A stretch of 62,152 nt of DNA, filler included, from Asterionella formosa (Eukaryota): the NCBI GenBank assembly GCA_002256025.1. It is 6 parts of 6 records of this genome, joined end to end, with 100 filler letters (N's around TTAATTAATTAA, not from the genome) between each part and the next. Parts side by side here need not be neighbours in the genome. Positions count along the whole stretch, not along the records: positions 10,423 to 20,734 come from NKIB01009665.1; 5 more parts are not named here. One strand, given 5' to 3'. Under the pieces are notes generated by a model. The model was not told the DNA's origin. It saw nothing but the letters and a program-made list of their open reading frames with translations, and searched no databases. Positions within the stretch are counted from its first letter, which is position 1, and each line of letters begins with the position of its first letter. This document shows, piece after piece, positions 987 through 58,599 of the stretch. The position numbers and the translations under genes are program-made.

Positions 987-1563
987 TGTTTGAATTGGAA
1001 TGACGACGGGAGAACAAATTATGAATGCAAATTGTTTGCTCCTTCATTGCAAAGCTTCAAATTTGCTTGCACAGCCAAGAATAGTGCCTGGCCAAGATTG
1101 ACGAAATCCTGAAGTTGGGATGTGTGATACAACTGCAATTACATGTACCGGTACTAATCTTTTTAGGAATGTCGGCACGCTGTTGGCGGCATTTTTGACT
1201 TGCTTCTGCTGTTGAACATCCAACTGGGAGTGAGTGATGGTTTTTAAATTACTACCAGGTACCGGTAGTATCATTGTTGCAATGGAACTACCGGTATGTT
1301 CCGATCGTAAGTTTGTAACATTGGCGGATCGCGAATTACTGTATATATGCATACCGGTACCGGTATCGTGGAATATGTAATTACCAGTACCTGATACCCA
1401 CTGGTACGTATGTATGTATGGCACCCAACTTCAGAGGAGAGGATGTGATTCTTGCGGGCGGGTGGGTGATGGGCGTGAAAAACCTTGAGACCATCGACAT
1501 GTATGTATGAGATTTGATAAACTGCCCGGTAGACTACCATAGTTCCTTTTTTCGTCCATTTTT

Positions 1564-2871
1564 ATGTTGTCGATCATGATGGGCACTGACGGCGCCCTAT
1601 CAGTCATCGACGAGATTGCTGCTGTCGAGAAGAACCTACCGAATATTAACTTCCAAACCACCACAGCTCATTTTTGCACAGTCATATACTCGAAATTGCC
1701 GAATCGTCGGATTAAAGTAACTCTAACCTTTCCTGACGAGTATCCTTGTCGTGAACTCATTGTAGATGTCGCCACCGACGGGAAAGTACCTCCTGGGCTC
1801 AAGAAGAAACTAGAAAGGGAGTTAGGACAAGTTGCATCGTTCAACAAGGGTCGTTACAACCAGGTTGAGCCCGTCTTGACGAGGCTGCGACAATTTGTGG
1901 ACACCAACAGATTTGTAGCGTGCTGGAAGGAACTACGACAGGTCGTTGATATCGTGCAAAAACTAAGTCAAGCCAAAGATACCAAGGGCACCGCAATTTC
2001 AATCAATGACGTTCAGGGTGTCATCAAGCTCAAACTCTGCAACGGCAATTACTTTTATTCCTGCTCAATTACGATTGATGATGCTTATCCCACCACTCTC
2101 TCCAATCATGATTGGGGTAAGGCTTGTTTGCTGGTGAAAGAAAAGGCCAATATTCCGCCAAATATCGAACAATCGCTAACCATACAAGCTCATCATTTGG
2201 TACGATTCATGCAAGATGGTATGTCTGCGGACGATGCCTTCGTGATGAGCAACCCAGTTAAACTACCCAAGGGAATCGACAAGGGCCGGCAGAATGTGGG
2301 AAGTACGCTCAAAGGATTACATCGTGACACAGGGAATAGCAATATCAAAAAACAAGATTCAGCGATAAAGAAATGCAAAACTAGCAATCAAGGGGATCCC
2401 ATCGTTGAACTGAATGAGTGGGAAGCCGAAGAGAAATCGCGAATGTCTGGCTACAATATATCTAGTTTTGATGGGTCTGATCCACAACCATCGCTGTTGT
2501 CGTTGGTGACATTTCTCGTCAACAAGATTCAAAGACTTCCCGAACAAATCTGTCCTCTTTGCAAAGAGCTTTCATTGCCCAATGATCCCAATATTTTAAA
2601 GTCGTACTACGACCCAGTAGTAGGTGCCGACAAACGTGCCAAGATTGCTCAACGGAACCGGCCTGTCCGCAGCTACTGTGGATGTTGGTACCACTACAAG
2701 TGCTTACATGAATTCATAACGCAGCCCCCTTTTGGAGCTGCGTGTCCTGAAGACAAACAACGGGTCTATCATCCAGATTGGCCGGAAGATATGCAAGAAT
2801 TGGAACGTGCATGGGCAATGAAGCAAGCCAAAGTACGCGAAATCGCGGATGCAGCATCGGCATTCATGTAA
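1564..2871 (+). CDS. RWD-domain plus RING-finger protein, putative E3 ubiquitin ligase
   Basis: 435-aa ORF with RWD-like YP motifs (LTFPDEYP, ITIDDAYP) and a C-terminal CPLC...CGCWYHYKC...CPED zinc-finger pattern. Confidence 0.7.
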   Translation: MLSIMMGTDGALSVIDEIAAVEKNLPNINFQTTTAHFCTVIYSKLPNRRIKVTLTFPDEYPCRELIVDVATDGKVPPGLKKKLERELGQVASFNKGRYNQVEPVLTRLRQFVDTNRFVACWKELRQVVDIVQKLSQAKDTKGTAISINDVQGVIKLKLCNGNYFYSCSITIDDAYPTTLSNHDWGKACLLVKEKANIPPNIEQSLTIQAHHLVRFMQDGMSADDAFVMSNPVKLPKGIDKGRQNVGSTLKGLHRDTGNSNIKKQDSAIKKCKTSNQGDPIVELNEWEAEEKSRMSGYNISSFDGSDPQPSLLSLVTFLVNKIQRLPEQICPLCKELSLPNDPNILKSYYDPVVGADKRAKIAQRNRPVRSYCGCWYHYKCLHEFITQPPFGAACPEDKQRVYHPDWPEDMQELERAWAMKQAKVREIADAASAFM

Positions 2872-2914
2872 AGACGATAACAGGCTGTTGACCTACTAGA
2901 TTTGTGTGTTCAGG

Positions 2915-4135
2915 CTAGTTGTTCACGACGGATTTCGCCATTGGATTGGGACCGAACATGGTATGGGATTTTTGGAATTGGACAAAATCCGGATTGTTGC
3001 AATACTTTCGCATGTGCTTTGCTCCCAACGATGAGACTGCCCCTTTCATTACGACTGTAATAAATAAAATGCCAATAGTGGCTAATGTCCATTGGAGACT
3101 TGTCTGATAAGCCGGAATACCAGCGAAGTAGGATCCGTACCAAAAAAGCAATTCTCCCAAATAGTTCGGGTATGTGCTATATGTCCATATTCCAACATGA
3201 CACCATTGATTTCGATTCCCTGGAATGGATTTGAAGGTTGATTTTTGATAGTCTGCTAATGCCTCTATCAGCAATCCAAATGCTTGAATGCCAAGTGCCA
3301 CCTTTCCTCCGGTGCACCACTGTATTTCGGATCGAGCCTCGAACCGCGACAAGCATGGAATCACCATGAGAACATAAAAAACTGAATAAATCATCCAGCA
3401 AAACAACTTGGATGAAAGCTTTGCCATTTTGTTGACTTCCACCACCTTTTCATGCAATTGAGGCCAATTGACGAATTCCCTATACCAGAAGTAACTTGCC
3501 GTTCGGATTGCCCACGCAATTACGAGACCAGAATGTAGATTTGTCAATGCTGGTATCTTTCCTTTTGAATTGTAAATTAACATAGCAGCTGCAAGAGGAA
3601 ACATGATCCCTAATGCATATCCAATAGTGATAAAGTATAGGAACATGTAAAATCCAGACGATGCTCCCAGCAACGCAAGTGCATAGACGGCTGGCAAGGT
3701 GAGTGTTGCTGTTTCGCCACTGCCGCTCGACCAGAACGCATCTCGGAGAAACAGTGTGGCTGGCACGACCGAATCGATCCACACTTTGGACGATTGTTCC
3801 ATGATAGTTGCTAGATCGACTGATGGTAGTGCCCTCGAGCGAAGTGTAACCCATTGCTGCTGTAGATTCGATGCAAGCCTGGAGGAGGTGCGCTTTGCGG
3901 AGGATGCGAAAAAAGTTCGCCCGGAAATATGTTCATCAGATATACCGGTAGTCACTTGAACGCCCTCGGAAAGAGCCTGTTTCTCCACTTGGATGTGAAT
4001 CTCTGGACGCTCGTCTTGGCCGCCGCGAAGTTGACGTAGAATGGCACTTTCAGGTCGTTTCGGACAACTCGCTGCGACGTAATGTGGAACGAATGGAGAG
4101 AACAAAAGAAGTAATAGAACACATGTATGTGTCAT
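2915..4135 (-). CDS. DUF1295 / steroid 5-alpha-reductase-like membrane protein
   Basis: Motifs IEALADYQKSTFK and GIWTYSTYPNYLGELLFW, several TM helices, and a signal peptide from ATG 4135 (MTHTCVLLLLLF). Confidence 0.85.
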   Translation of the reverse strand: MTHTCVLLLLLFSPFVPHYVAASCPKRPESAILRQLRGGQDERPEIHIQVEKQALSEGVQVTTGISDEHISGRTFFASSAKRTSSRLASNLQQQWVTLRSRALPSVDLATIMEQSSKVWIDSVVPATLFLRDAFWSSGSGETATLTLPAVYALALLGASSGFYMFLYFITIGYALGIMFPLAAAMLIYNSKGKIPALTNLHSGLVIAWAIRTASYFWYREFVNWPQLHEKVVEVNKMAKLSSKLFCWMIYSVFYVLMVIPCLSRFEARSEIQWCTGGKVALGIQAFGLLIEALADYQKSTFKSIPGNRNQWCHVGIWTYSTYPNYLGELLFWYGSYFAGIPAYQTSLQWTLATIGILFITVVMKGAVSSLGAKHMRKYCNNPDFVQFQKSHTMFGPNPMAKSVVNN

Positions 4136-5420
4136 CCTCGTTGCCTCTTTCCTCGCGGCTGTTGAGCTAAGGCTCGTGTTTGTTGAGCGAGTTGTCAAGA
4201 ATGACTACCGGTAGACTCCGGTAACAATTGAATGTATGTGTGTGTGAAAATTACAATCTGATGGTACCAGGTACTCTGCCAAGTATCTGGTACCGTACCT
4301 GTACCAGGTACTTGGCAGAGTACCGGTACCTGATACCTGATGCCTGATGCCACTGCTGTTTGTTGGTGAGTACCGGTACCTGGTACTCCAGAGTTCGGAG
4401 TACCTGGTACTCCAGGTACCAGTACCATGGTGCCTGTTACATTGAGAAAGTCAACTTCCCAGCAAGCTTGAGTGAGCAATATTGCCTTCTGCTTTTTGGG
4501 TTAATTCATGATTTTGGGAAAAAGTGCCTTCATTAGTGACATCGTTTGTTCCAGTACTAGTACTATGGTTGTTTCGATGCCCTTCTTATTTCAACTATAC
4601 ATTCCGGTTTGGTGTGCTTCACATAGATACCCAACAGTGCTTCAGGCGGTCATTTGATTAACCAGGTCTAGCCTCAGGTAAACCCTCTTTCACATGTGGT
4701 GGGTCTTTCAATCTGTTTCGCAGTTTAGATCTCAAATGTATTCAGACAATGTACAAAGCCATCGAAATAGCAAAGCAAGCAAGAGATGAGAAAAATCAAT
4801 GAAACTAAGATATAATAAATTTTCTAATGAATTGTCAACAATTATGTACTGGACAATGTTCTCCTTCCAATTATGTTGTATAGTAACTACTTGCATACAA
4901 GGTGATGCATCAAGCTTATGTCATTGCTGGTCATAAAGCGTATTCACGAGATCAAAATACTTGCTGAAGAATATTGGGCTATTGGTGAAGGATTTGATTT
5001 CGATCCACATGCGCAAAAAAAGGTGTGGGTGTTTGAGTTTATATTCATGATATATTTACAATAAACACAAATGAAATAATTACGATCAAATTCACCATGT
5101 GTGATGTGGACTACACCACTTGCTGTTAAGGTACGCGAAGACACAATACTTTTTTATTGGGAACGTCAAGCTACATACTGCCTTTGAGTCATGGATGGTC
5201 ACTAGAAAACACCAACTACATGTTACAAATCACCTTTTTTAAATTTGAGATCCCATCAACTTCGTTTTGCTTTATACCTTTTTAGGATTGTACTGTAGAC
5301 AGACTACCGGTATACCTGTAGATACCGGTATACCAACTTGTCGATACATTGCAACCTACAAAGTGTAGCACCACCGCACCCCCCAAAAAAATATGTAGAT
5401 CAACTGTTGTACGCACGTTG

Positions 5421-6752
5421 TTATGCCCTATATCCCCGATCTCCTCGATCCATCCGATCGTCCATCCCACGTCCTCTATCGTCCAACCCACGTCCTCGAT
5501 CGTCCAACCCACGTCCTCTATCGTCCAACCCACGTCCTCGATCATCCATTCTCCCTCGATATCTGTCTGGAGAGGATCTACTGCGGCGTCTGCTATCATA
5601 TCTCCTTGGTGACCTGGATCTATACCTAGGAGGACTTCTCGAACGTGACCTCGTTCTCCTATTCTCCGGCATGCGTCGATCTCTATCGTGCCTATTAAAC
5701 CCACCACCACTTCCACTCCGATCTCCTTGAGCCACATATTCAACTGTCAACACTGATTGATCCAATTTCCCTCCATTCACTTGCTCTTTTGCCTTGGTCG
5801 CTTGTTCTATGGATTTAAATTGGACAAAGGCGTAATTCCGTTTCATTTCAATTCGTACCAAGTCACCATAGGGTTCAAATAACATTTTTAAATCGTCACG
5901 TTTGGTGGACACTTCCTGAAAGTTGACCACAAACAACGTGTCAGTTGGATGAATGAGACGTTGACGACGATCGTCTTCCTTGCGCTTGACCCGGCCGTCG
6001 CCTCGAGCAAATTCAGCACGAAGCGCATTGGAGACTCCGGGAATTCGACTGCAGTAGTTGTAGGGAGTGGAAGAGTGAGTAGTAGTGGAATTGTGTAGTA
6101 GTAGCAGGAAGGGAGTAGAAGAGTGTACATGGTAGGGTGGAAGGGTGTCGTGAGTGCATGATGATGGTTCCAAGGTATATAATGTTGGTAGTGTGGAGGA
6201 TGAAGTGTGTACCCATGATATTGTAGGTAGAAAATGAATGTACGCGTCGAATGTAGGAGGACAAAACACACACACACAGACGAAGAATACGGTAGACTAG
6301 AACCACGTCTAGGATATGTAGCAGGTACCGACCAGTTTGTAGGAATGTTGATGGTGGTGGAAACAGAACCCTAACGTCTGCCAGTATATGTAAATGAATA
6401 TATATACCAGCAAATTGCGTGGAGAATGTAGTGTACATACGCATACAATACATACATATAAAACTCACATGCCGTTGATATCCGACACGAAACGTTCGGT
6501 CCTTGCTTTTTCATCTAAACTGGTGGCATCCTTGAGAAAGAGGAAGCAATATCCACGCTTGACATCCACTCGATCGACTGGCATTGCGGCCTCGTCAGTT
6601 GCAGGTCGTTCAAAAATATCACAAACTTGTTCTACAGTGTAAAGTGGATTCAAATTACCCAAAAAGACAGGGCGCAATGTCAAATTGACGTTGCTTTCGT
6701 TGCCTTCAATGCTGTTAGCGGTACCATTCTGTGCAGCTGCTTCGTCCTCCAT
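5421..6752 (-). CDS. Serine/arginine-rich splicing factor with two RRMs (RS31/RS40-like); exons 6752-6469 and 6048-5421
   Basis: RRM1 (RPVFLGNL...KRGYCFLF) and RRM2 (TLFVVNF...KRNYAFVQF) join in frame across a GTGAGT...TGCAG intron at 6468-6049; RS-rich C-terminus. Confidence 0.9.
5460..5548 (-). repeat. 21-bp coding tandem repeat (DDRGRGL, about 4 copies)
   Basis: cgtccaacccacgtcctc(g/t)at unit repeated directly. Confidence 0.9.
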
Positions 6753-7538
6753 TGTTCTACGATGAATTTAGTGTGTTACGTAGCTTTGGGTTGCGGATCA
6801 GTTATGAGTATGTCATGTGATTAGAGCGAGACCCTAAAATACCGCTGCTCAACACAATGCGATGAAATGAACAGTGAATGAAAGGATGACTCTCGTTTAC
6901 CTATCGGCACATACAATACCTACATACATTGCTAATATACTGAACTTCATTTGTATGATGCCCGCATGCAGATATCATAACGTTCTCACCAGCTGAATGC
7001 TCCCTACCCGAAAAAGTCTACCTGTATGTACCTACATATGTATGCATCATTCGTGTATACCGGGTGCACGATTGCTAGTCGAATCTGATGATGTGATGAT
7101 GGTTCGCTCGTTTTTTACATAAATGCAGGTATCTAGTCCGAATTTATTTTCTGGTGGTTGGCTGGCGTTGCTCGTTGATGATGGCTGAGCGAAGCGGGCC
7201 AAGCATTGTTGTCTCTGAATGGATGCTTAAATAAGTACCTCCCTGGTACAAGAGTACCGGTACCAGGTACCTGTTGCTAGGTATGCCTGGTACATAAGAG
7301 GTGATGGACTGCAGTGTGCACAGTATGTATGCTACATTTCCTTTTTTATGGAAGGGAGCCAGCCTATCAAGTCAGGCCGGTGATGAATCTCGATGAAGCC
7401 TTTGCAAGTTGCAGTAAATAAGAAATTTAGCTTTGTTTTCTTTTTGTATAGTAAGAACCGTCTTTTACAGCAACTCCCTCTTGAGATTATTGATGACATC
7501 GCTTCGGTGGATGTCGTTGAGTTGCTTCAGTTGAAAGC

Positions 7539-9077
7539 CTAAACTGACGCTGCAGCATCGAGTCGTCCAGAAAAGGCAAAGGAAACCACACAATCTGTAA
7601 TTCCACGAAAGTAGTCGAACGGTCCAGCTCTCAATTCGTTACACAAAGTTTTTTCAAACACACGGTGAAGAACCAGTGTGTCCACGTCGGAATTCGAAGC
7701 CAAAAGGGAAAGAAGAGGAGGCAAGAAAGGCTGGTTCCCGTCACTAGGATCGCATAGGTGGCAGCGGCCGCTGACGTAGAACTGAAAAGCGGAATACTTG
7801 ATATTCCATTTGCCGTCCACTGCAGGGCTGCTGTCTGCGGGCCCATGGTACTCTTGTGATTCCAATGAAACGCTTTCAATATCAACCACAGTACTTTGAT
7901 GCATGGAGTTGTATGTCATCTTGACACATTCGTCCAAGAACGCCGTTTCGCCCTCATTCATTTGTCCCGTAGATCCAAGCAAGATGATTTTGACTTCTTC
8001 CGCACGCTCAACAGCGGGCGCCGACGTTGAAGGATGAAATTCAACGATACAGTCGTTAATCTCACTGAATGCCGCAACGGATTTTGTTGCAAGGTTGTTG
8101 CAAAGTGCCTTTTCAAATTGGCGATGGATAATGGCTGGGTTATGTGAACCTCGAACTAGGCTTTTCAACAATGCACGCGGTGGAGTGACATCGTCGGCAA
8201 GGGTAGAACCCTGTGTGCAGCTGCGGCATCGCCCGTGAATTGACAGCCACAAATATAGATTCGTAATTTTCGCGGCAGTGCCCGCAAGAATTGCATTTCC
8301 GTGGTGCATGTCTTCGCCAACGACGGAAACAGATTCGACTTGGGTCATTTCGTCATGCATCTCATTGTATGTTTGCATCCAAACCTCGTTAAAGATTCTT
8401 GCATCTTTTTCTGAGAGGTGATCAGCAATACCAAGAATGATGGTTTGTACCACTTCGTTAATTTCGATACTGTTGACATCGTCATGCAATGAGCGGTTCT
8501 CGACTGCGGTTGGGTCAGTTTGAGAATGATAGTTGACAATGCACTCAGAGATATCTTTGAAGGCTGTAGCGGAGCTGGTTCGTAGGCTAACGCATAGATC
8601 CATCTCGAACCGACGCTTCAACATGGCAGGGTCTGTTTCGGAAGCAACTGCTTCACCGTGGGGAGCTTCGAAGCGGGCAAATTCATTGGTTGTCAAACAT
8701 CCTAGGCAGTGGCCTTCGAGATCGAGCTGAAGTACAATATATGTACTCCAGTAGTCATCAGTTACAAGGGACGATGCTGGTGCACGAAGGTAGCCTTGGG
8801 ACTTTGTGTTTAAGGAGCTTTCGGGAAAGTCTTGTTCGTTTTCAATCATGACGCTAGTGACAGTAGCTTGCTTGGAATCATGAAGAGCATTGAATGCCGA
8901 CTTCCAAGCATTTGTGAATATCTCAGAATCGGTAGTGGAGAGGGGACCCTTGACACCAACAAGGACAGTTTCAACGTGCTTCGTGAAGGAGAACAAATTG
9001 CTATGAGCAAGTACACTAACAGAGCAGACGGGAACTATCAATGCGGCAACGATCGAAAAGATGACTGTAGTCTTCAT
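7539..9077 (-). CDS. Secreted protein with three tandem ~150-aa Cys-containing repeats, function unknown
   Basis: 512-aa intronless ORF with a signal peptide; three copies of the pattern G-x-C-xx-C...FE-xx-LC-xx-L...F-xx-I-xx-C-x-V. Confidence 0.8.
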   Translation of the reverse strand: MKTTVIFSIVAALIVPVCSVSVLAHSNLFSFTKHVETVLVGVKGPLSTTDSEIFTNAWKSAFNALHDSKQATVTSVMIENEQDFPESSLNTKSQGYLRAPASSLVTDDYWSTYIVLQLDLEGHCLGCLTTNEFARFEAPHGEAVASETDPAMLKRRFEMDLCVSLRTSSATAFKDISECIVNYHSQTDPTAVENRSLHDDVNSIEINEVVQTIILGIADHLSEKDARIFNEVWMQTYNEMHDEMTQVESVSVVGEDMHHGNAILAGTAAKITNLYLWLSIHGRCRSCTQGSTLADDVTPPRALLKSLVRGSHNPAIIHRQFEKALCNNLATKSVAAFSEINDCIVEFHPSTSAPAVERAEEVKIILLGSTGQMNEGETAFLDECVKMTYNSMHQSTVVDIESVSLESQEYHGPADSSPAVDGKWNIKYSAFQFYVSGRCHLCDPSDGNQPFLPPLLSLLASNSDVDTLVLHRVFEKTLCNELRAGPFDYFRGITDCVVSFAFSGRLDAAASV

Positions 9078-10322
9078 GATGCGATTTTGCTGTTTGTGTA
9101 ATTTGAATCTTTTTACTGATATTGTGAGCTAATGAATCTTGGTTCGATATGCTTTGCATTTTTCGTTTGAAACAACTCCTTTTCAATTTTGTTTTGATAT
9201 TTTCATCAGTTGCTTGGTTGATTCAGTAGGGAGAAGCACGACGAGCAACTGCTTGAAATAATTGATGTCATTTGGGTCATTGTCGGTTACTCGAGATTGC
9301 AGTAACTGCCGGTACAGTTGCGCTGATGACTATGGTCCGAATTTTGGTGTTTCAAATCAATTTTTAATCTTTGATTCGATATTCGGAACGAAAATATGAT
9401 GAAAAACTAATCCCCTCTCCTATAAAGACATCGTTGCAAAGGAATATCTCCATCACCACAACCTACTTTCGTTATCAGCAATTGCCTGTCAAATGAACTA
9501 CCGGTACTGGGAGGCATAGTTACGGTTTCTTCCGACGGTCCTTTAGTAATGATTCTTACAACTTCTCCCTATATTCCTGTAATCTAGTTCGTCCCGATTC
9601 ATTGGTTAAAATACTATCTCGTCCTGTCGTCCACATTACTACCGGTATATACCGGTACTGTTATTCATGTAATAAATGAAATGAGTTTCATTGAAAATAA
9701 CTGACTCTCCGTTCCATACTGGTGGTACCTGGTACCACCTAAAAGCTGTGAGTCAACGTTTGGACGATTTTGAACTGAGAGTCAAAGTTAAATCGAGTAA
9801 ATTCGCGTTTTGGCCTAAATATGCTAGATACGGACATAATTATTCAAATAATGTTGTATCGATTTATGGAACACGGTAACCAATAATGATCGTTTTTTGA
9901 ACTCGTCAATTAGCTATGTAGCGTTACTTCCGTATTTGGTCCCAAAGGTTGCTATCGACGAGAAATGGAATATACTCCATACAGCTAGCATCACCTTCAA
10001 TATATGTACGCAGGTATAAGAAAGTATTTGTCGGAAGAATAGAGGATATTTTTGCTATGTATGGCTGGATGCATAATGAAACTAAATTGGGTAGCCATCA
10101 TAGCTACCGGTACAAAATAATTCTGGCTACCAGTACAACATAATTTTAGCTTAAGTAAAATGTTCTATATAAATAACATTGATATGAATAAAGTTTATGT
10201 TCACATGCATCCGCGATCTTGATTGTTGTTGTCGTTGCATTCATTCATGACAAACATGAAATCGAAGTCCATTGCGCAGCGATGGGTGTGGAATCGTTGT
10301 TGTATCTTCATTGCAACTTCTA

Positions 10323-11553: not shown

Positions 11554-12342
11554 CTACTGCAGACGTTTTTGATCGCTTGCTTTTTCCCTCAATTTCATGG
11601 CTGGTACTCGTCGAAGCGTCCTGTTTAATTTCACTTTGCGACGTTCCGCTCGTTTTCGTTCATGGTCTTCTGTCTCTATCTCGTTCCAAAGTGCAGTTGG
11701 ATTCAGCAAGATTTGCATCAACTTGCGACTTTCCTTTACTTCCTTTTCTCTAACCTCCAAAAGATAAGGACTCCTCGGAGCCTTCGAGTCTTTCAATAGT
11801 AAATGTCCCATGGCATCCTCAAATGTTTCTCCCTCTATTACCCGCTTCGTCTCCACCGACTGAACATCCATTGACAAGGTCCCCACTGCATGAGATGTAA
11901 ATCCTGTGGATGGTCTCAACCACGGCAGTGCATGCGTCTTGAGAAGCACATTGTCTTTAGTGTCCAAGGCAATCTCACTCACAAGCCGCGTGCCGTACCA
12001 TGCGGTTCCAACGTTGATACTGGCAGCCACAAAAAGTCCCAAGAGTCCCACGCTCGGGTCAACGTTGAGGTCAGCGTTGGAATATTCATTCACGGCTGGA
12101 ATAAAGTCAGCCACATACCAAGTCCAATACACGGTGTGGAGGGATGCCATTGTTAACATGGCACGCGGGCGGAAACTGCGATTCTCCGTGTCGCGTTGGT
12201 ACAGCAGAGTTGTTGGCGAGGGGTTGCTTTTGCCGCTATTGACGGAACTGAACGTTCTACATGACGTTGCATTGAATCGAAGCAGAGTGGTGGTGATACT
12301 GGCTCTTTGGCCAAGTTGTCGTGCCGCTGTCGTTGTTAACAT
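11554..12342 (-). CDS. Probable mitochondrial two-TM membrane protein (TMEM70/186/223-like)
   Basis: Arg/Thr-rich transit-like N-terminus from ATG 12342 (MLTTTAARQL...RTFSS), LLY motif, two hydrophobic helices, then 'RLVSEIAL'. Confidence 0.55.
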   Translation of the reverse strand: MLTTTAARQLGQRASITTTLLRFNATSCRTFSSVNSGKSNPSPTTLLYQRDTENRSFRPRAMLTMASLHTVYWTWYVADFIPAVNEYSNADLNVDPSVGLLGLFVAASINVGTAWYGTRLVSEIALDTKDNVLLKTHALPWLRPSTGFTSHAVGTLSMDVQSVETKRVIEGETFEDAMGHLLLKDSKAPRSPYLLEVREKEVKESRKLMQILLNPTALWNEIETEDHERKRAERRKVKLNRTLRRVPAMKLREKASDQKRLQ

Positions 12343-12394: not shown

Positions 12395-12890
12395 GGGGGG
12401 GGGGGGGTACCTGGCCCCCCCACCCCCCCCCCCCCCCCCCCCCACCAGGTACCAGGTATCTGGAGTTGGTCCTGGTATTCAATTCGACAGTGATAAACCG
12501 TACTACCTGCTACCGGTCTGTAGACTAGAGTATTGGTGCCAGTACCCTGGTGCGGGTGGAGATATACCAGTACCAGGTACCTATCATGATACCAATGATG
12601 AACTCCCATGTACTGTACATACCGGTAAAGAAAAACACATGGGCACAAAATGTACCTACAGACCGGCATATGGTACCTGGTATCCCAGCGCAACCACCAA
12701 ACTCATTCAGTATGGTGCCGGTACCTGGTACCTGGTACCGGCAGTGCCTCGTACCAGGTACCTGGTACCAGTACCGTATATCCGGAATGACGATGTGTAT
12801 CATGCACCGGATGTCTTGTACCGGGTAACCTGGTACCTGGTGGTACATAAATGTATCAGTATTTAGAAAACAGAAGTACCGGTACTGTAC
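12395..12890. repeat. G13 and C-run tract followed by a dense GGTACC/TACCGGTA/TACCWGGTA array in a divergent promoter region
   Basis: Read directly; lies between divergent ATGs at 12342 (-) and 12945 (+). Confidence 0.85.
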
Positions 12891-12944: not shown

Positions 12945-13724
12945 ATGTCATCAAGTGAAGCAGAAGCAGAGTTTGACGACGACGACGACGATAATGACAA
13001 CAATAAAAAGAACGAGAGCGAAGAAGAGGTTTTACTTTCGGGGTTGAAACGCAAGATGAGTCGTCCCAAACCAGTCATTTCTTATGCTGACAATGACCTT
13101 GACGACAGTGAGGACGATGAGGACAGTGGCGATGACATGCCACTGGCAGCCTTGAAATCAAACGCATCTCCTCCGAAAAAGAAACAGACGACCAAGGAGC
13201 CTCCCAAGAAGAAAACCACCGCCACCGCCACCACTACCACTGCGACAACATCAAAACCTGCAAGCAATAACAAATACACTTCTGTTGCAGAGGCTTTCTA
13301 CAACAGCGGGTCGACAAAGGGTATGTTGGTCCAGCGCTTGCTGGCTCGATGGTGGTATGCTATAGATTGGCCCATTTCTAAGAATAAAGGGGAACAGAAA
13401 CCACCAACCTACGATGCTTTGGACGGCTTTCCAGGAGTCTACGTATGCACCAGTGGTGACAAGGTTGGACACATTCTCGATACCAGAGATCCACTGAAAG
13501 CGCCTTGTTTTCGGAATATGGCCAAGAAAGGGGCGGAGGAATTGAAGCAATTGTTATTGACAGCTTTGGAAGAACAAAAGGAGCAATTGATCTTACATGA
13601 GGGAAAGGGAACACCCACTGAAAAAGAAATCGACAACATGATAAAAGAGACAAACAAGGTCAATGCCGACAAGGCTGACAAGGAAGCTGCCACACTCTTG
13701 AAGGCAAACAAATTAGCTCTTTAA
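12945..13724 (+). CDS. Hypothetical, probably nuclear protein (acidic/basic N-terminus, LLARWWYAIDWP core)
   Basis: 259-aa ATG-initiated ORF with NLS-like PPKKK motifs and a globular-looking C-terminal half. Confidence 0.75.
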   Translation: MSSSEAEAEFDDDDDDNDNNKKNESEEEVLLSGLKRKMSRPKPVISYADNDLDDSEDDEDSGDDMPLAALKSNASPPKKKQTTKEPPKKKTTATATTTTATTSKPASNNKYTSVAEAFYNSGSTKGMLVQRLLARWWYAIDWPISKNKGEQKPPTYDALDGFPGVYVCTSGDKVGHILDTRDPLKAPCFRNMAKKGAEELKQLLLTALEEQKEQLILHEGKGTPTEKEIDNMIKETNKVNADKADKEAATLLKANKLAL

Positions 13725-20834: not shown

Positions 20835-22934
20835 TGGGGAATTTGTGGGAGTTTTTGTTGGAACCCTGGTGGGATTGGCAGTTGGGGAAATTGTTGGAGC
20901 GTTTGTTGGAACCCTTGTGGGAGCGACTGTTGGGGAATTTGTGGGAGAATTTGTCGGAACCGTTGTGGGAGTGACAGTTGGGGAAACTGTTGGTGAGTTT
21001 GTTGGAACCGCTGTGGGAGCAACAGTTGGGGAAAGTGTGGGAGAATTTGTCGGAACCGATGTGGGAGTGACAGATGGGGAATTTACTGAATCATTGGTCG
21101 GATCCATTGTGGGATCGACTGTGGAGACGTGTGTTGGAGTGTTTGTCGGAGCATTTGTGATACTGACATCCGTGGAATGAGTGGGAGAGTTGGTCGGAAC
21201 CAATGGGGAATCCAGAATGGGAGAGCTGGATGGAGTGCCTGTAGGAATGCTTGTCGGAGCGATGGCTGGGGCATTTGTGAGAGCAGGAGTAGGGGCATTT
21301 GTAGATATACCTGAAGGAGAAGAAGTGGGAGACCCAGTGAGAAAGCTTGTCGGTAACGCTGTGGGAGGAAAGGTGGGGGTATATGTCGATGCACCTGTGG
21401 GAACAGGAGTAGGGGTATCTGTATGTACAACTGTGGGAGAAGAAGTGGGATACCCAGTGGGTATGCTTGTCGGTAACCCTGTTGGAGGAAAGGTGGGGGT
21501 ATATGTTGGTTTACCTGTGGGAGCAAATGTTGGTTTCTTAGTGGGGTTGATTGTGGGAATTTTTGTGGGCACGAAGGTGGGGGTATTGGTGGGACGAATT
21601 GTTGGAGCTGTTGTGGGTTTCTTTGTAATTATCGTGGACGGTGCCTTGAATGTATCAACGGTGGTTGATTCTGATGCTGTAAAATTATGCCCTTGCTTGA
21701 TGAGCGCATTGTTTAAATACAATTTGTAATACCCAGGAGCTTTGATTCCATCCCCACCGTAATCAAGAACGGTGAAACTAAAAACCTGATTGACGGGAAG
21801 GCAAATATCGAAGACAAGCGTTTTTCCGTTCATAGACCTAGCAATATTGTTGTTGTACCCATTTGTCATAGGGTTGATAAAGAGGTCGGGCCCTGATAAT
21901 TCCCACCCAGTTTCATTCGCGTATTGGTCGAGCAGGATTTCAATTTTCAACGCTGCCCCATCGGACGTGCATACTTCATTGTTCTTGCGATACAGCGACC
22001 AAACGATGTACATGCGTTTGATCTGACCTGGAGTGAACTCTTCCAAGCATGGATCATCGGTATAATCCATATAGTTGTGAACAGGATCGACTCCAGGTAG
22101 GCCAGGGCATGAATCCCTCCCAATTGGACAATTGGCACTATAGCTTGCCTGCTGGGGCGTGTCACTAACAAAGTCACCTGTGTTGTTGGCACTACAGGAA
22201 TTGCCTTGAAATGTGTGGTACAATCCAAGCCAATGGCCCACTTCATGAGTCAGTGTCTTTCCAAGATTACAGCACGACGCACGTCCTCCAGGGACAGTAT
22301 TAATGTCCATGAAGGTTCCATCGATGATATTGAATCTTGATAAATCCACACCAGTATTGAAAAGCGCAGGAAAGCGAGACCAGGATCCCCCCCATAGCTT
22401 CCCACCAAAGTATACCATCAATGTTTCCGGTCCACCTTTCTTATACAGACTTCCTATAGTATAGTCGGCGCCTGTCATGTTGATATAATAGACATCGTTG
22501 ACAACGTATGTTACATTCATAAGGAAAAAAATGAAAGGAGTAGCTGCAAAGTTGTCATTCAAAATTTGAAATTGCGCAGTAACCACGGCATTGGTCATTT
22601 CAGAAGGTTGCCCGTTGTTAGGCTGAAAACTATCGATTGGGGTTTAAGAAATGTTAGTGAGCGAAACAGTTATCCTCGACAGTCTTGCGAAAAAGTAGGC
22701 AACCACAAAAAGGGCGATGTTGACTCACATGACGAAGTAAGTTGGTACAACGATGCTTCCCAAATCAGGCATACCGCCATATGAAAATCTTGAGCTCGCG
22801 AATGACCGAATTTCGCTATTAATTTTAGCTGCTTTTTCAGGAGCTGGGGTCTCGGTAATACAACGCTTTGAGTGCCCATGTGCGTGTGATAAATAGAAGA
22901 GGACAGTAAAGACCATCAGCGACAGGCTCAACAT
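20835..22934 (-). CDS. Secreted M43 (pappalysin/ulilysin-like) zinc metalloprotease with Pro/Thr mucin-like tail, 3' truncated; intron 22728-22630
   Basis: Signal peptide, KRCITE cysteine-switch-like segment, THEVGHWLGLYHTF, Met-turn HNYMDY, and PT repeats running into the gap. Confidence 0.92.
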
Positions 22935-27851: not shown

Positions 27852-29172
27852 TTAAAATTTTAGATTTTCTCTAACCTGCAATGCGTTGTCAAATGCATTG
27901 ACAAAGAGAGCAAATTTCTCATTGCTAGCAACATCACTTGAGAGTCCAGATGATACTGACTCCCAAATGAAAGGGGAAATTTCAATTGTGGCATCACCAC
28001 GGTGACGGTAGGCGTCAACTTCCTTTTCATTCAAGAAATTGTAAGGGGTTTTTCCAAATGTTTCATTCAACATTTTCAAGTCCATAAATCAATTCTGCAC
28101 AACTTTCTTTATGCAGAAGGCAACTACAGCTTTTTCCATTTGCACCTTCTCCTTCTTGGTAAGAACCTTCAATGATTTTTTAGACCAAACGGTTCCAAGG
28201 CCAAAAAAATTATCCATATTCTTGACATGAGGTACTTTCGACGGAAAGCCAACATGATCTGATGATACTACCATGCCGTCCAACTGCTTCCAATTGCAGT
28301 TCTCTAGACGAAATTGAGCCCGACATCCAAAAAATTTGGTTTCACCATTTCTTTCCAATTGAAGTAGACTTTCTAAAAATTTCACAACAGTGAATGGTCC
28401 ACAGGACCATCCAGTATCACCTTCTGGTTGATATAATAGTGAGTCATGAGAGGTTGCCATAAAAACTTGCAATGGAGCTTTTGTAAAATGATAAAAACTC
28501 TCACTCTGAATGACCTGTTATGGCTTAAAAGCATGGATCGGAAGGTAGGCATCCCGTGATGCTATTTATTTTTCCCTTTTACATCCAGGGATGATGCAGT
28601 ATTTACGGGCAAGGTAAAACACTGGATCGAGATGTTCTTGGACTGTGGCTGCTTCTGCTGGATCGCGGATTTGAAATATCCCTTCCTTGAGATCAAATAT
28701 GTAATGAACAAAATGATTCTTTCCATAAGATGATCTCTTGCAGTACACTATAATCACATGGGTACACTCAATATACAACGGGTGACAATTGCCACTATAA
28801 GTGTCTCCACCACAATCCATTTGTAGATTGTCATCAACATCCACAATAACACTCACACTGGATGGATGGAGTTCATGAGTTATGAATTGAATGAGATTTT
28901 GAATTGTTTGGAAATCCCAATATGCAAGAGATTTAAACTCCTCAATTTCTTTTTTAAAAATGTAACAAGATATAAGTCTCTGCAGCATAAGTACAGACTT
29001 CTTGGGGAGTTCGAGAATCAAGTTCTTCCCATCGCTTGAATTGTGGCTTCGTTTTGGGAATGTTCACGTACATGAAGGTTCGAATGGGAGACATGAGTTG
29101 ACATAATTGACTTGGATACACTTTTGCTGAAAATTGGTCATTCTGACCTTTGTATAAGATAAAAACGAGCAC
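27852..29172 (-). pseudogene. Fragmented Ulp1/C48-like cysteine protease, probably transposon-borne
   Basis: Four broken ORFs carry NHFVHYIFDL...IRDP (His, Asp) and QPEGDTGWSCGPF (oxyanion Gln, catalytic Cys). Confidence 0.55.
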
Positions 29173-29581
29173 CGAACAGTCTGCACTCAGTTTGAGCCAG
29201 TAGTTTTTTCCTTGATTTGCAGGTTTTGATCATCTCAAATCACTGCTGTGGACTGAAAATCTTCAGTACTAATGGGAGCATCATTTTACATGTTTATGCA
29301 TAACAAAAATACATGCTTATGCAAGCACAGTCATAGAAGCGTCAGCAGTATACCTACCACATCATCTTGCTTAGCAATGATATGGTGGTACCTGGTACAT
29401 AGTATCACCACTCGTGACATTAGTACCTGTTCATGAACCTTTTATAAAAATTTTTAGTTATACTTTACTGAAAGGAAGGTTGACCGTTCTTACCAGTGCA
29501 TTTGATTCAATTGTTTCACTTCCTACAATCTCCAAGACTCAGACATCAACGCCATTGGGAACTGAAGGAGTTGTGAAGAGC

Positions 29582-30295
29582 ATGTCGGAAATGAAGTTAA
29601 AGCGTAAAAGTGTTTCCATTGGTACAAAGTTAGCGGCAATAAAGTTTCTTGGTGAAGGGAATAGTGTTAGAGAAGTTGCCTTTAAACTTGGCATAAGCAT
29701 TGGAACTGTTCAAAAAGCAAAGAAAAAGCAGGAGGACTTACTGATGGAAGGAAAATCGATGCAATCAATGAAAATGGCTTGCCTTAATAGTGGCACAGAA
29801 ATCAACACAGTATTGTGGAGATGGTTTTGCACTGCTTGAGCAACTGGATATCCAAGTAGTGGACCCATCCTGCAAAGCAAGGCTTTATTGATCGCCAAAG
29901 CATTTGATGCAGATCATAATTTTAAGGCATCTAATGGCTGGCTTGAAAAATGGAAGAAAAGACACAATGTCAAATCCTATGCTATTTGTGGAGAGTCTGG
30001 GAATGTAGACATTGATAAGGCTGAAGAACGGAAAGCTTTCTTGGCTAGTTTGTGTGATAGATGTACCCCAGCTGACATTCTTTTCAACACTGCAAATGAT
30101 TGGTTTGAACAACCCTGCCTTGGTCTATGCATACATATTATGTACCGGTACACTGGTACTGTAGTATGTATGGAGTACAGAACAGCGTAAACATGCTGAA
30201 CCTCCTTATAAGATACACCTCCCCATAAGATACGTAAAGGCCATAAATGCAGGAGCAAACAGGGTGTACCGGTATCTTATAGAGAGGTTTCACTG
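29582..30295 (+). mobile_element. pogo/Tigger (CENP-B type) DNA transposon, internally deleted, right TIR retained
   Basis: HTH-psq (KRKSVSIGTKL) and CENP-B HTH (LWRWF..A*..GYP.SGPILQSKA...FKASNGWLEKWKKRH...GESG). The DDE domain is missing. The end reads gtatcttatagagaggtttcactg|TA at 30295. Confidence 0.88.
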
Positions 30296-31129
30296 TAATG
30301 TATTTATATAGGTAGCAGAATAATATGCAAACGAGAAGTGCGAGAAAGATCTTGACCGGTCATGCCAGGGCAGGACTGGAGCGCGCTAGAGGAGGAGCCA
30401 TAAATTTCAACATACCAGGTCAACCAGGTACGTGGTACCAGGTACTATGCTCGCAGGCAAGAGACGACCACCTCGGGCATGTCTTGCCTTCAGCAGAATT
30501 ACTACTGGAGCGCGCCAGGAAAAAGCGCCATAATTTCAACATAATGCAATCTACTGGTATGTGATATACCGGCATCTGATTATGGTGTTTTGGCATTATG
30601 AGCCCTGGTACCCTGGTACCCGGTAACAGGTACCAGGGTACTGGTACCGCATCTCATTGCTGGTGTACTGAGAAGATATCATAAGCGACAAGCAACAACA
30701 TCATCATCACAGACAGAAAAAAAATCTGCTCATCAGCCTAGTATACACATGCATTATTAGCTGAGACCTGCAGACATTTGGCTTCCATTGCGCTTTGCAC
30801 ATCGGAAGAATATCAAAATAAGCGACAGCAGAATCCATCGGGATCCGCACGGCGAAGGATTCTTGCTCTTTCACACAGCTGTTTAATCAGGACCAGGGTC
30901 TCCAATCCTGTGAATGCATCCTAATCCAGCAAAATATACTTTATCCAGTTGAATTCATTTCATCGTCAAGAAGGAAACTCAGCCTGTGAAGTGACAACTG
31001 AGACAACGATTCATTGCAACAGCCTTCTTGGTCTTCGCATTCACGATGAGTCTAGAAGCAACCTTTGTCGCCGCCCTAAGATCCGTTGGAACTGCTGGGA
31101 CATTGGCATTAGCAGGGCTCTATCTCCAC

Positions 31130-33843: not shown

Positions 33844-34320
33844 ACAATTTAATTTAATTCAGAATGTGCAAATGTATGATGGTTGCTAGATTCAATATAA
33901 ACATGATAAAATGTAAGAAATAATGATTTTGAAACCAACTAGCTTTATACTGTTGACTAATACCATAGAGAGATATTATGGGTACATATTGTCTACCATG
34001 AGAAAGGCAGCATACTATTGTTCTTAATGGGGTGATACTTCCATTTAAAGTGCGTGTACGGTGGTATATATACCAGTATACCTATGATAGGAGCAGGTTG
34101 TTGAGGGGAACCTTGTCTTTAACAAAGGTGAGCTACAATATTATGACTACCGGTATGTTCCATTGCTGTCGTTCGATTATCGCAACACTTTGTATATACC
34201 AGATCTGGTGGCTATGCTGGTACTGGCTGAACGGGACATCGTAGTACATACATCATTCCCTTGGATTGAAACAGGTCTCACGTGCCCGGTATGCTACCGG
34301 TACCTTGGTACCTGGTACCA

Positions 34321-34991
34321 CCTAAAAACTGCTTTGAACCTCTATCGAAATTATTTTACCCCTTTGAACCACTATACGTAGAATAACACGTTTTGTGACG
34401 AATTTCTGATCCTGGTAGTTTACAAATCTTAAACGATCCGTCCGTAGCTGAGCATGCAGCGCTTCTCTGAGTATGAACAAGCTACACTGAACATTCATTT
34501 GTGTAATCAATACGTGAAAGTGTCGCTCGACCTTCTTTGGACAAATTAGCGGTTTACCACGACCTCGGAGTGTACAGGCATATGTACACATACATGAATT
34601 CCGTAAACCTTTTTATCGCACATTGATTTGTTTAGCCCCAAAGTAGATATCATACCAAGTGGTACCGGAAATTGATCCCGAATCTGAATTATGAAACCTT
34701 GTAATCCGTCTTCCCTGAAGAACATAAATTAATTGTTTGGTATTGAGACATTTTAATATACGGGTTTGAACCTCTACAATGGATAAATGCATCAATACAA
34801 ACAATAATATCTTCAGTAGTCGATGGAACCTGACTGAATCGTTTGTCCAATCATAATCCCCCACCTCTCGTGAATATCTGGAGCATCTAAAATGATTGAA
34901 ATGAATACCGGTACCGGGTATATTGGTGTTTAGTCGTACTAATCGATCGAACGCACCGGTAGTGAAATAGATGTTCAAGGCAGTTTTTAGG
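34321..34991. mobile_element. MITE-like insert with ~25-bp TIRs, nested in the larger element
   Basis: cctaaaaactgctttgaacctctat versus atagatgttcaaggcagtttttagg (2 mismatches); non-coding interior. Confidence 0.65.
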
Positions 34992-41803: not shown

Positions 41804-44538
41804 CTCTTCCCTTGCTGCTTTTTGTTATTGCTGGAAAGGTTCATTATGTTTAGACACACTCTATTCGTTCTGAGATTTGATATTGTGGTCGATTTGATAC
41901 CTTATCGACGTTTCACAATAGTTTATGTTGATCAGATTTGTTGTAGAAATCTCAGGTAGTTTTTCACCCATGCATGAATAATTTGCGGGACAAAAGAAGC
42001 ATTCATGCTGTTTCAATACCGCACTAGTCAGTACCGGGTATAAGACATAAAATTCCATAGGGTTATTATTAATCAGTGCCGGCATGACATATGTAGACAA
42101 ATTCTTGCATACAATTTTTGATCTCAGCCAATTGTCTCGTACACGTCAAAAGGTCAGTATACACAGTACCAAACAGCCGACCAGAATACTGGTTTCCAAA
42201 TCACTCCATACTATTTTTTTAGTTTCTTTTTTACTTAGAAGCTACCATAAATTATTGCTTCACCCTCGGTCCGGAGAAGTTATGTGTTGATCATGCGCAT
42301 TTCGTTCATACCGGTACCAGGGTACTTGCATCCACTGATGTTGATTCATGCAAAAGGCAAGCATTTCGCTCAACTCCCTGATGGTGTGATCGATGCATTT
42401 TTCGCTCAGCTATAAAGAAGTATTTGATACTATCGGTACTAAAACATGCACGTAGCTAGATATAGTAGGCGGGTACTACTTCACCAAATTCAGCCATTGT
42501 GGAATTACTATGTACTATAGAGCACATCATCCTCATAGCAAAATCTATCTGTAGTATAGGTATTCGAAAATGACTCAGGAGAGAAGTTTTGACTCATCAT
42601 GGTCTCGCTTGTGGATTCCATCACAGCTTTCGGACTGCACACTGCTCGGGAGCAAAGAGTACGATTCATTCACTGTTGCTCCTTGTATTTCTTGCACTCC
42701 TGTGAATGTATTGGCTGCATACTTTTGCTTACCCGGTCAGGGTATACCGGTACCAGGGTACCAGGGTACCGTCGGTTATTACTTGTAGCTGCCGAAGTAG
42801 AATATTATAACAGAATTTTAACTCATCATCATGGTGGTGTCAATCATTGGTAGATTACATTTCTATTGCATCTTGCCTAGGAACTTTCCCCTATATTTAT
42901 TTGTGCATGCGCCAACATAGACCTAAGATACATTACCGGTAGACAAGTTTATTCTACTTTTAGTAAGTAGTACCTCTGGTACCAGGTACCTGGTAGAAGT
43001 TACCAGGTAACCAAGAGATAATGAGCAAGAGTTTTAGCTACCGGTAAGGCTGCGGCCCCACAGCTACACATTGCGAGGTCTTTTTCCCCCTAAATATATC
43101 ATTTTTATTTGTTTAAAATGAAACACTATCAATCTGGCACCGATTCCTATTTAATTCAAATATTCAAATCGACACTTGAATCATGGGAATTCATAGAAGC
43201 AAACTCCATGTTCTCTGCCGTTTTTACAACACTAGCAATGTTTTCTTCAAACTAGGGTTAAGCTGGGCATTTCAATCCTAGATTAGAGGTAGGGTTTAAA
43301 AAAAATATTGAGTCAGAGTACTCAAAAACACACTTTGTACAATTAAAATATAAAGCTGTATCGCCAAATGGAGCTTTCACCAATATACACCCTTTCCATA
43401 TACTAAGCAAGATACAGTCTTCTGACAAAGTAGGGGTTTAGCTCAACGCTATAAATCGTCAGGATATAGAAGGATCTGTTGAGAAAGTACAGAAAGTGAA
43501 AATAGTGGATTTTACCAGGCCAACTCGTTTATTTGGCCTAGTTTAAAAACCGAAGTTCCTTTCTGCACTTGCTTGACGAAAATTATCTTCTGGGGCTATA
43601 TGAAGATTACCTATGCACTTAACTCTTCTTCAGATATTTTTGTTAAAAAATATTGGCCTTTTCAACGGTATCCAAAATGTTGGAATTGTAATCACTTATC
43701 GCCAAAACATCATCATCAGAATTGAAGTCTTGTGATTCAATTTTTCATCCCACAATCTTCTGTACAAAAAGCTCCATTGTAAGTGTCCATTTCACTATAA
43801 ATAATATTTTGATTGGTCAAGTTCAAATACTTACCGATATTTGATTGACCCGGTTTGCGAGGTTTTGCAAACCCACACTGGCCACACTGGATGCACATTT
43901 AAAAATTTCTTGTGTGATCGCCAGTACGCCAGTACCTGGTACCATATTCACTATGGGTACCGGTAGATGATTATCATCGGACACATGTGTACCACTCCTA
44001 GAGTGCACCTCAAATATTTGCTGAGCTGCTGGGTCGAATGTGTGGCAAAGGTATACATAGAGACATTTACAATCTCTATCTATTTATTTAGCGAACTCGA
44101 AAAGGAATCTATGCACGTGCTAGCAAATTTCCACTGATTTGAATATTTCAAATGGATTCATGTCATTTAAAAATAACTTATTAAAGTTTTTAGTTCCAGG
44201 GAATATCGGCAACCCTAAGGAATATTTCAATTTTTGCCTCAGTTCTGAAATGCAGGAACCTTAAGCAATGAGTATATCCTAATACTACACCAAGGAGATT
44301 GCCTATGAAAAGTTCGAATTATCAAGTCCATATTCATAATAGCCCATACTCAAGTACCATTAGCCAGAGTTGGCAAAGTTTTCTTCGTTCTGAGTGATTT
44401 TCTAGGTAGAGCTGGAATCATGATGTTGAGATGGGGTTGAGGGAGTTCTATAGTAGCATTTATATAGTTTGCTGGATGATGGGTTCTCTCTGAATTCAAT
44501 AATTCCGTATTCACTTATCCAAAGAAAGTATTCACACA

Positions 44539-56881: not shown

Positions 56882-58599
56882 GAGGAATTATTGACCAAAA
56901 GAAAAAGCAATTCAAGTCTTGGGGAGAGACGGGTCAACAGGCTATGTATGATAGACTACTACTAGGTTCGTGTGTAACGACGAATGGCGCTGCTTCGTTG
57001 ATTGATGATTTGTTCGCGGGTACCTGGTACCGGAAATCAGATTGCTGTTGTGCTTGGTTGAAGCTGATGAAAATGATTTTGCACATACCGGTAGGAATTT
57101 TACCAGTCCATGCCAGCACATATTCTCCATGCATGTTATGATATTAGAGTACATACCGGTAGTACCAGGTACAAGGTACTACACCAGGAACCAGGAGGGT
57201 CCGGTAATCGAGATATTTAGCTTTATCTTTAAGTACAAACCGTGTTTAACTACCTACCAGTGTTTTCGAATATCGGGTATTGATTTTGGGTAATGTACTG
57301 TGTAGTCAAAATTTCGAAAGAAGTAGGGTTAAAAAATGTTTTGGTAGCATTTGTCATGGATTAATTTTCTATGACTGCTGCACTGCTCAGACATGTCAGC
57401 TGGAGAATTAGATGTTGAGTGTGAATTGGCTAAAGGATTTCCTTGTTGGTGTGGAAATTACATGATGTTCAAACCATTGATCTGGATCTGATTTAGATGC
57501 ATGGATATGTTCAAAAGCATATATCAACGTAATCATACTGCTGCCTGTTTAATGGATGATTTTGGTCATTGGTGTTGTCAGTTAGTATCTCCTTGCTTGA
57601 ATTCCTTGTAAATTCTTGTGGTTCTTTCATCTGCTTGTACTACTAGGCAATTGAATACTGTGTAGTGATGCTGGGTCACAAATGGTGTATTTGATTGTCT
57701 GGCTGCAAATATATACATCATTTTCCATGGTGAGAGAGGTGATTGCTAACCAGTGGCAGTAGTAGATGTTTGCTCTGATACTAGCTACTAGCACTAGCTT
57801 CATTTCTTCTTTTTACATTGGTGTGCTCCAATAAAATTTTGTGTTGAAAGAGAATGAATTTACAATGTATATGATAGTATATTTTCCAGCCCATAATATG
57901 TTCTATGATGTGTTCATATCATATATATGGATCTATGTTTTGTTCAATGCATGCATCATATGCCGCCAGTACAAAATAATTCTAGCTACCAGTGCAGCAA
58001 AGAAGTTTTAGCTTATAGCGCTGTTCTTATCATTTTTTTGTGTATCACGAAATTTGAATTTTTTGAAAATGTATCAGCAACGGTAACTCGATTCGAATTG
58101 AATTTCATTCATTCCAAAAGTGCGTGACACTGTATCACTGAGAATTTTTAATCACATTGTATCATGATGGAGTAACATGGATCTTCAATGGCAACAGGCT
58201 GGCAAAGATCATATCCCTCTTGAATATATTGATGGTCTTGATATCAAGCAGCAGCGTAAAATACAATTATACTATATTACTATAATAAAAACACACCATG
58301 CATTGCATGAATCGCTCATGCCGTCGCCTTTTGAGTTCTTACTTGATGATAACGATAATGACAGCAGTGATCTGGATTTCTTCTTCCTCTTTCACTTCGC
58401 TAAGGAAGTAGAGGAACAAGAACACTCTTCCAAACGATGAAGGCGACTCTGTAAACGGCAGCATCACTCATCCAAATGACGACGACAACGACAACGAAGG
58501 CACAAGTGGCACCACGAAAAAATCTCCTGGCAATCACATAATGTCGAGAAACTCAATCTCGAGATTGCTGCTTTCGAGAAGACACGCACAGAATGTCAC

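Follow-up and report, generated by a model that had tools for sequence, protein, structure and literature searches.

On the non-transferred strand, enzymes of the Tc1/mariner group cleave a few bases within the element, and end joining of the resulting 3' overhangs leaves footprints of 2-4 terminal bases between TAs (PMC6943129), which for Sleeping Beauty take the form TA-CAG-TA or TA-CTG-TA (PMC6943129). Excision of the pogo element Passer leaves 0-4 bp (PMC9976928), and of 94 excisions in rice only 8 proved clean (PMC4423477). Grass Stowaway elements provide single-locus examples of natural footprints and of a new insertion next to one (PMC1925063); the Stowaway record consists of single loci or about 100 events, mostly imprecise, with neither a genome-dominant word nor a self-made target in the accessible text of these sources (PMC1925063, PMC4423477). 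The pogo superfamily, with its Passer, Tigger, Fot-like and Mover families, is marked by TA duplication, short terminal inverted repeats and a DDxD triad (PMC7386202, PMC9976928); stramenopile families show DD35D and DD36D spacing among others (PMC7386202), and the part of PMC7325037 available to us contains no diatom entry.

Here we examine short TA-spacer-TA units in the genome of the diatom Asterionella formosa. Like Sleeping Beauty footprints, they consist of a TA duplication around 2-5 terminus-identical bases and have the look of a stereotyped end-joining product; unlike the 3-nt mismatch product of Sleeping Beauty (PMC6943129), the main products here keep the bases of both ends (4-5 nt), and the units are natural, about 55,000 in number, and chained. 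They share with Tc1/mariner/pogo footprints both TA-duplicating insertion and a spacer that equals the termini of a resident TA-flanked element. Two groups of such elements are resident, with the TA duplication, short inverted repeats and DDxD triad of the pogo superfamily. The CCG-ended families match Pfam DDE_1, whereas the CCA-ended group departs from described pogo families in its DD37D spacing, its proteins of 700-1000 aa without a Pfam match and its GG|TA|CC target. Compared by description, a DD37D triad does not typify Passer, Fot-like (DD35D) or Mover (DD36D) elements and falls within the ranges given for pogoR and Lemi in the accessible text of PMC7386202. We consider it very probable that the words are excision footprints of these two resident transposon groups, accumulated with a stacking ratchet.

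Abundance and clustering of the words

The window analysed here is a stretch of 62,152 nucleotides, filler included, in which six contigs are joined by N44-12 bp-N44 spacers; the assembly comprises 68.4 Mb in 15,436 contigs. The window holds 48 copies of TACCGGTA, against a shuffle mean of 0.35 and maximum of 2 (0 of 100 shuffles as high), and 28 copies of TACCWGGTA, against a shuffle mean of 0.29. Both words occur in every one of the six pieces (16/6/4/8/7/7 and 7/9/2/4/4/2, respectively), in agreement with a preliminary description of this DNA that had reported word clusters in all six contigs. Genome-wide we counted 28,528 copies of TACCGGTA and 26,886 of TACCWGGTA, compared with 1,718 and 902 for the reversed-pattern controls, totals that are somewhat inflated because the assembly has some duplicated contigs. 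Such redundancy is seen as identical or near-identical stretches on the contig pairs C10131/C9706, C1997/C14757 and C14840/C3267. By spacer, the ratio of observed to expected TA-spacer-TA words was 141 for CCGG, 126 for CCAGG, 15 for CCAG/CTGG and 4 for CCG; CCGG and CCAGG are therefore strong members of the spacer list first proposed, whereas CCAG/CTGG and CCG are far weaker. The TA-CC(W)GG-TA words appear to be the top over-represented words of this eukaryotic genome.

One cluster occupies part of the 600 bp that separate a minus-strand ORF from an ORF starting at 12945. This cluster, its neighbours and further mapped clusters are as follows:

12444..12890, no strand: footprint cluster between head-to-head genes, with 13 TA-spacer-TA units
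11554..12342, minus strand: flanking ORF reading away from the cluster, without Pfam match, start set by eye
12945..13724, plus strand: flanking ORF reading away from the cluster, with only a sub-threshold YL1 match
1250..1400, no strand: footprint cluster of 6 units
4205..4430, no strand: footprint cluster of 9 units
30410..30650, no strand: footprint cluster of 6 units
42730..43046, no strand: footprint cluster of 8 units
57018..57205, no strand: footprint cluster of 4 units

The spacers at 12444-12890 are CCAGG, CCTGG, CCGG, CCAG, CCG and CCGGG, and parsing the cluster into 13 units bears out the mixed orientation that had been claimed. Its densest chains run from 12722 to 12737 (CCTGG, CCTGG) and from 12752 to 12778 (CCAGG, CCTGG, CCAG, CCG). 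Every one of the 13 example clusters initially named contains units, between 2 and 13 of them. Directly to the left, at 12395-12445, stands a G-run followed by long C-runs, and like tracts lie on other contigs. Elsewhere the window carries two peptidase M43 genes with PT repeats arranged as an inverted duplication (20835-25528; arms 93% and 81% alike), as well as an ORF fragment at 58680-59063 that has no Pfam match and that we take, by eye, to resemble a PIF/Harbinger transposase N-terminus.

Placement relative to genes

Placement was assessed in a 383-kb sample made up of the window and 33 further stretches picked by size of contig, a sample that is not strictly random in that some contigs came from word or sequence search matches, and with ORFs as a mechanical proxy for genes, without an intron model. 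ORFs of at least 200 codons hold 7 words in 126 kb (0.06/kb), against 1.5/kb in the remainder, so that words are about 25 times rarer inside ORFs. Density peaks at 5.1-5.2/kb between 151 and 450 bp upstream of the ATG and is 0.3-2.0/kb downstream of stops. Ten divergent gaps contain 74 words in 10.5 kb (7.0/kb) and eleven convergent gaps contain 4 in 9.5 kb (0.42/kb), a 17-fold higher density in head-to-head than in tail-to-tail gaps (p=2e-16). The claim that the words are dense upstream of genes and rare in coding sequence is upheld by these densities, both by compartment and by distance to the ATG. Surviving elements show no excess upstream of ORFs (CCA-ended elements, 11 away and 11 toward; flanks with 1.2-2.2 words/kb), and the promoter bias may therefore reflect selection for excised alleles or easier excision in promoters, and not a preference at the insertion step. 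Two copies of TACCGGTA lie within long ORFs, at 3943-3950 in a DUF1295 gene and at 36728-36735 in a guanylate cyclase-like gene, where the 6-bp unit preserves the frame.

Units arise as TA-duplicating insertions

Between repeat copies the words are derived, TA-duplicating insertions, as can be followed in two elements of the window:

34318..34991, plus strand: non-autonomous CCA-ended element of about 680 bp with terminal inverted repeats and TA on both sides, found by inverted-repeat search
34906..34920, no strand: TA-CCGG-TA-CCGGG-TA within that element, where most sister copies have one TA
34954..34961, no strand: decayed unit CA-CCGG-TA within that element, where most sister copies have a single TA
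29110..30297, plus strand: the window's own broken pogo element
30267..30274, no strand: TA-CCGG-TA near the end of the pogo element, where its sister copy L180 has a single TA
30143..30150, no strand: TA-CCGG-TA added next to an older CCAGGG-type unit, where L180 has the older unit only

For the 680-bp CCA-ended family, 25 loci were taken, 4 duplicates dropped and 21 copies aligned. Judged by eye, units occur at 8 different TA sites in a minority of these copies, singly or stacked up to three: TA-CCGG-TA and TA-CTGG-TA are found as single insertions, and TA-CCTGG-TA-CCGG-TA and TA-CAG-TA-CCAGG-TA-CCAGG-TA as chains, at places where the majority of copies have one TA. An all-against-all comparison of the collected loci yielded 1,233 distinct indels of 2-40 nt among paralogs. 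Exactly TA+CCGG accounts for 22 of the 91 distinct 6-nt indels, more than any other TA-duplicating 6-mer; 33 of the 1,233 consist of TA and a known unit, and 870 fall outside every class. For TA+CCWGG, just 2 clean indels survived the flank filter, which is prone to drop events inside chains, and the CCWGG case therefore rests on the 21-copy alignment and the flank statistics below. Because the insert is constant and the flanks vary, the unit is neither copied from its neighbours nor built by substitution. One-mismatch neighbours of the words are in excess, corresponding by our own estimate to decay at about 6% per non-CpG site, so that the scar load would have accumulated over a long time. 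Both the 22 six-nucleotide events and the 8 sites in 21 copies accord with the expectation that insertions between repeat copies would prove to be TA duplications.

The collected loci also contain other stereotyped TA-duplicating insertions, TA-C-TA (29 events) and TA-GC-TA (12 events); outside ORFs, TAGCTA is 2.5 times as frequent as expected. The most numerous class is that of three-base indels (461 of 1,233, 150 of them tandem duplications), which may be retained target duplications (3 bp) of another superfamily.

A strain comparison covered window positions 1-10322, to which 4 of the 24 listed sequencing runs were aligned; the cluster at 12444-12890 lies outside this range. Among the 12 of 55 indels listed there was no motif indel, and the repeat at 9740-10322 dominated the tables. 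A contig of run X1 over 2188-5495 shows 23 gap letters and 8 listed substitutions at 4237-4301, inside the cluster at 4205-4430, and contigs of runs X6 and X16 over 6858-7456 are 6 letters longer than the window; in both cases the letters themselves were unseen, and we do not count them as support.

Two groups of TA-targeting elements

The genome holds 93 DDE_1 matches, which include two TA|CCG-ended families and one CAG-ended family. Exact TA|CCG end patterns of the two families number 310 and 109, against 0 and 0 in controls. In four complete CCG-ended elements (L199, L204, L209 and L211) the DDE_1 domain lies between TA-flanked short inverted repeats, the arrangement that defines pogo elements, and one family has, by eye, DD35D spacing. 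The CCG ends are young, with median end similarities of 0.97 and 0.94, and six CCG insertions lie inside repeats whose sister copies continue after a single TA, without the element.

Exact ends of the form TA|CCA(C/G)...AAAAACTG number 532 in the genome, against 5 for the control. The family of the 680-bp element has at least 40 genomic matches, and a CCWGG unit abuts each end of the window copy. The window also contains part of a second such element:

9733..10029, plus strand: end of another CCA-ended element, abutting a TA-CCTGG-TA unit at 9726-9734, with high read depth from about 9740

For the protein encoded by one CCA-ended locus (L080) the genome gives at least 153 matches, and another locus (L160) is a complete copy of 3,536 bp with identical 30-nt ends and a 716-aa ORF. 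Across 53 homologs of the L160 protein, D246 and D395 are invariant and D433 nearly so, with 37 residues of spacing between D395 and D433 (DD37D); the group combines this conserved DDxD triad with short inverted repeats and TA on both sides. The transposase has no Pfam match in any of the 53 members and no PDB sequence match. Profile alignment to the DDE_1 frames of this genome is weak (E 0.024, probability 2%), with the second and third aspartates paired, and the nearest named ESM Atlas clusters carry DDE_1 (0.96; 12% of members in the top cluster). On these comparisons of sequence we call the CCA-ended DD37D group pogo-like, as a putative member of the superfamily. Named transposase homologs come from Fragilaria crotonensis (53% identity), and these, like the gene content and the presence of this DNA in freshwater metagenomes, indicate a freshwater diatom. 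CCA elements are found inserted at one another's terminal TA.

TA-targeting transposons with matching termini had been anticipated, and they are present: CCG and CCA(C/G) ends are abundant, and one CCA copy, L160, is intact. The accompanying idea of one source for the words did not survive, since two element groups were found. The preliminary description had also named motif positions shared between species without indel polymorphism, or the lack of a TA-targeting family with matching termini, as grounds for abandoning it; neither was found.

Three further repeats were noted. A long inverted-repeat, foldback-like element of about 3.2 kb (32370-35570) encloses the 680-bp CCA element. Another repeat family ends in TA|CCAGGTG, is usually abutted by chains (23518; L009, L022, L028, L146, L157), and has no transposase linked to it. 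A distant DD37D branch (33-42% identity; metagenome contigs L262, L274, L277, L286 and L289) terminates in CCG, and several of its ends are adjoined by CCGG, CCG or CGG units.

Linking words to element groups

A scar is expected to be bordered by the same sequence as the element from which it derives, so the flank signature can serve as a test of the link. Among the collected loci, GG precedes 60 of 79 CCA ends and 1 of 49 CCG ends (p=2e-18); among the first 30 genome matches listed it precedes 22 of 30 CCA ends, against a baseline of 8%. The words divide likewise, GG standing before 60-65% of CCWGG words and 12% of CCGG words, or 49% and 6% once words following another unit are removed. CCAGGG words follow the CCA flank pattern. 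CCAG/CTGG words are intermediate at 35%, as would be expected if some are CCA products and others are CCGG words altered by CpG decay; C-to-T neighbours of the CCGG word are in excess (102, with 9 in the control), and such decay may account for about half of the CCAG/CTGG words. The base preceding CCG ends is indistinguishable from that of all TAs (p=0.29), and because CCG flanks match average TA sites, the CCGG link rests on the termini and the absence of GG. The target preference of the elements is accordingly clear in the flanks for CCWGG/CCA and only compatible for CCGG/CCG.

Chaining follows the same division: 118 of 187 CCWGG units (63%) touch another unit, against 32 of 210 CCGG units, and the 38 adjacent CCWGG pairs comprise 20 of the same and 18 of opposite orientation (p=0.87 against 50:50), the even split expected of independent events. 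The original suggestion that footprints stack is sustained by the chained units, but not its premise that stacking follows simply from the creation of more TAs; it goes with the GG|TA|CC preference of the CCA group.

A search of 104 end flanks against all collected loci for element-versus-scar pairs returned empty sites and nested ends and no proven scar, and the one candidate pair, L044/L082, is ambiguous. A hot TA site carries CCGG in 4 of 34 matches, 2 of them on duplicate contigs, with no known element end there. Among 79 metagenome loci, 36 CCA ends have 4 CCWGG-type units and 1 CCGG-type unit beside them, and 13 CCG ends have 0 and 5 (p=0.048). In this comparison the numbers are small, the four CCWGG cases come from two contigs with ends matching families of this genome, and the ends are not independent; it gives only a hint that in these relatives the adjoining unit follows the terminus. 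No unit adjoins 31 of the 36 CCA ends, and DNA outside elements on these loci contains 15 words in 34 kb.

A proposed mechanism and its alternatives

We infer that excision is the source of the words. Insertion of the pogo type would duplicate TA, excision would leave a few terminal bases on each flank, and end joining would seal them between the TAs. The CCG-ended DDE_1 families, with little preference beyond TA, would give TA-CCGG-TA, and the CCA-ended group would give TA-CC(A/T)GG-TA, with CCAG/CTGG, CCAGGG and CCAAGG as minor products. If the enzymes leave 3-nt 3' overhangs, CCG and CCG would anneal through CG to produce CCGG exactly, and CCA and CCA, unable to pair, would be joined with one A lost or mismatched, as CCAGG or CCTGG; two-base overhangs would explain CCGG too. 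Blunt fill-in of both 3-nt ends is ruled out by the counts of CCATGG (1) and CCGCGG (0) in 383 kb, and 4-nt overhangs by that of CCACGG (0 in 383 kb). Since CCACGG is absent even with CCAC the commonest end, CCAGGG (30 in 383 kb) is not to be read as CCAG+GG. A clean footprint here would need a particular repair regime, because rice excisions are mostly imprecise, and some 55,000 scars against about 950 counted ends would require very long, heavy traffic.

The CCA group would land preferentially at (G)G|TA|C(C), and because each footprint and each CCA end provides half of a GG|TA|CC target, re-insertion beside old scars would add one unit per round. That this amounts to a self-feeding ratchet, in which an undescribed diatom DD37D pogo-like transposase prefers the GG|TA|CC made by its own ends and scars, and rounds of insertion and excision write the commonest promoter words, seems to us on balance probable, if only just. 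Concentration upstream of genes could come from insertion or excision within open chromatin or from selection that keeps only excised alleles.

Alternatively, only the first units might be footprints, and most chain growth might be due to slippage or unequal exchange within a GGTACC(W) repeat, in the manner of a microsatellite. The 63% of CCWGG units that touch another and the existence of same-orientation pairs would suit such growth, and the extra G of CCAGGG and CCGGG may be a slip; slippage copies orientation, however, and the even split of CCWGG pairs (20 and 18) largely refutes a single-orientation array, while neighbouring units are often of different type and only 3 CCWGG triples occur in 383 kb, so that we find this account highly improbable. 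We also think it very unlikely that the fixed CC(W)GG enters TA breaks through a non-excision process, whether templated micro-insertion, capture of clipped tips or abortive single-end reactions. Such a process would accommodate the lack of an element-to-scar pair among the collected loci, and abortive end reactions could equally place CCWGG-type units against CCA ends, as seen at 21 of 79; yet a constant insert in varying flanks is not locally copied, most units lie away from any element, and word and flank signature are both split by element group. As for telomerase-type addition, the telomere-like repeat at L075 is of TTAGGG type and has no match to the unit.

The HIP1 palindrome of cyanobacteria lies largely in coding DNA and arises by substitution. 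Like the present words, it is a short palindrome whose genome-wide frequency exceeds expectation by a factor of tens to hundreds (PMC4390886, PMC5861425), and their palindromic form and density of about 0.8/kb recall it (PMC4390886, PMC5861425); together with the strong promoter-side bias, this would agree with a selected cis-element, or with a HIP1-like palindrome produced by point mutation and biased repair, perhaps linked to a CCWGG/CCGG methyltransferase. HIP1 is, in the accessible text of these sources, tied to methyltransferases (PMC4390886, PMC5861425), whereas the word here is a TA insertion, avoids ORFs and matches transposon ends. Units are inserted at plain TA, also in transposon interiors and ends, they decay, with one-mismatch neighbours in excess, and they are nearly absent from ORFs (0.06/kb). 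We regard an origin of this kind as very improbable, although units could still serve a transcription factor secondarily.

Implications

Excision footprints of the two transposon groups remain our preferred reading. In titles and abstract openings, mainly of the open literature, we found no published description of genome-dominant, chained footprints; the element tables of PMC7386202 may list the DD37D group. New here are the two element groups with matching target signatures, the intact CCA transposase copy and the orientation test. Elsewhere, footprints have been described in assays and at single loci; in A. formosa they appear genome-dominant and concentrated just upstream of genes.

If this interpretation is true, a census of surviving copies falls short of the real DNA-transposon traffic by one to two orders of magnitude, and motif finders applied to diatoms would take scars for regulatory elements. 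Some 55,000 scars, dozens of times more than there are surviving elements, would then form a record of past transposition that can be read, dated and assigned to families, and from it one could measure, family by family, how often elements have inserted and excised over their lifetime, which targets they choose and by what rules their ends are joined. With its 6-bp target preference, the intact CCA element is also a candidate tool. For the diatom itself, scars would keep rewriting promoter DNA and may perhaps supply raw material for gene regulation.
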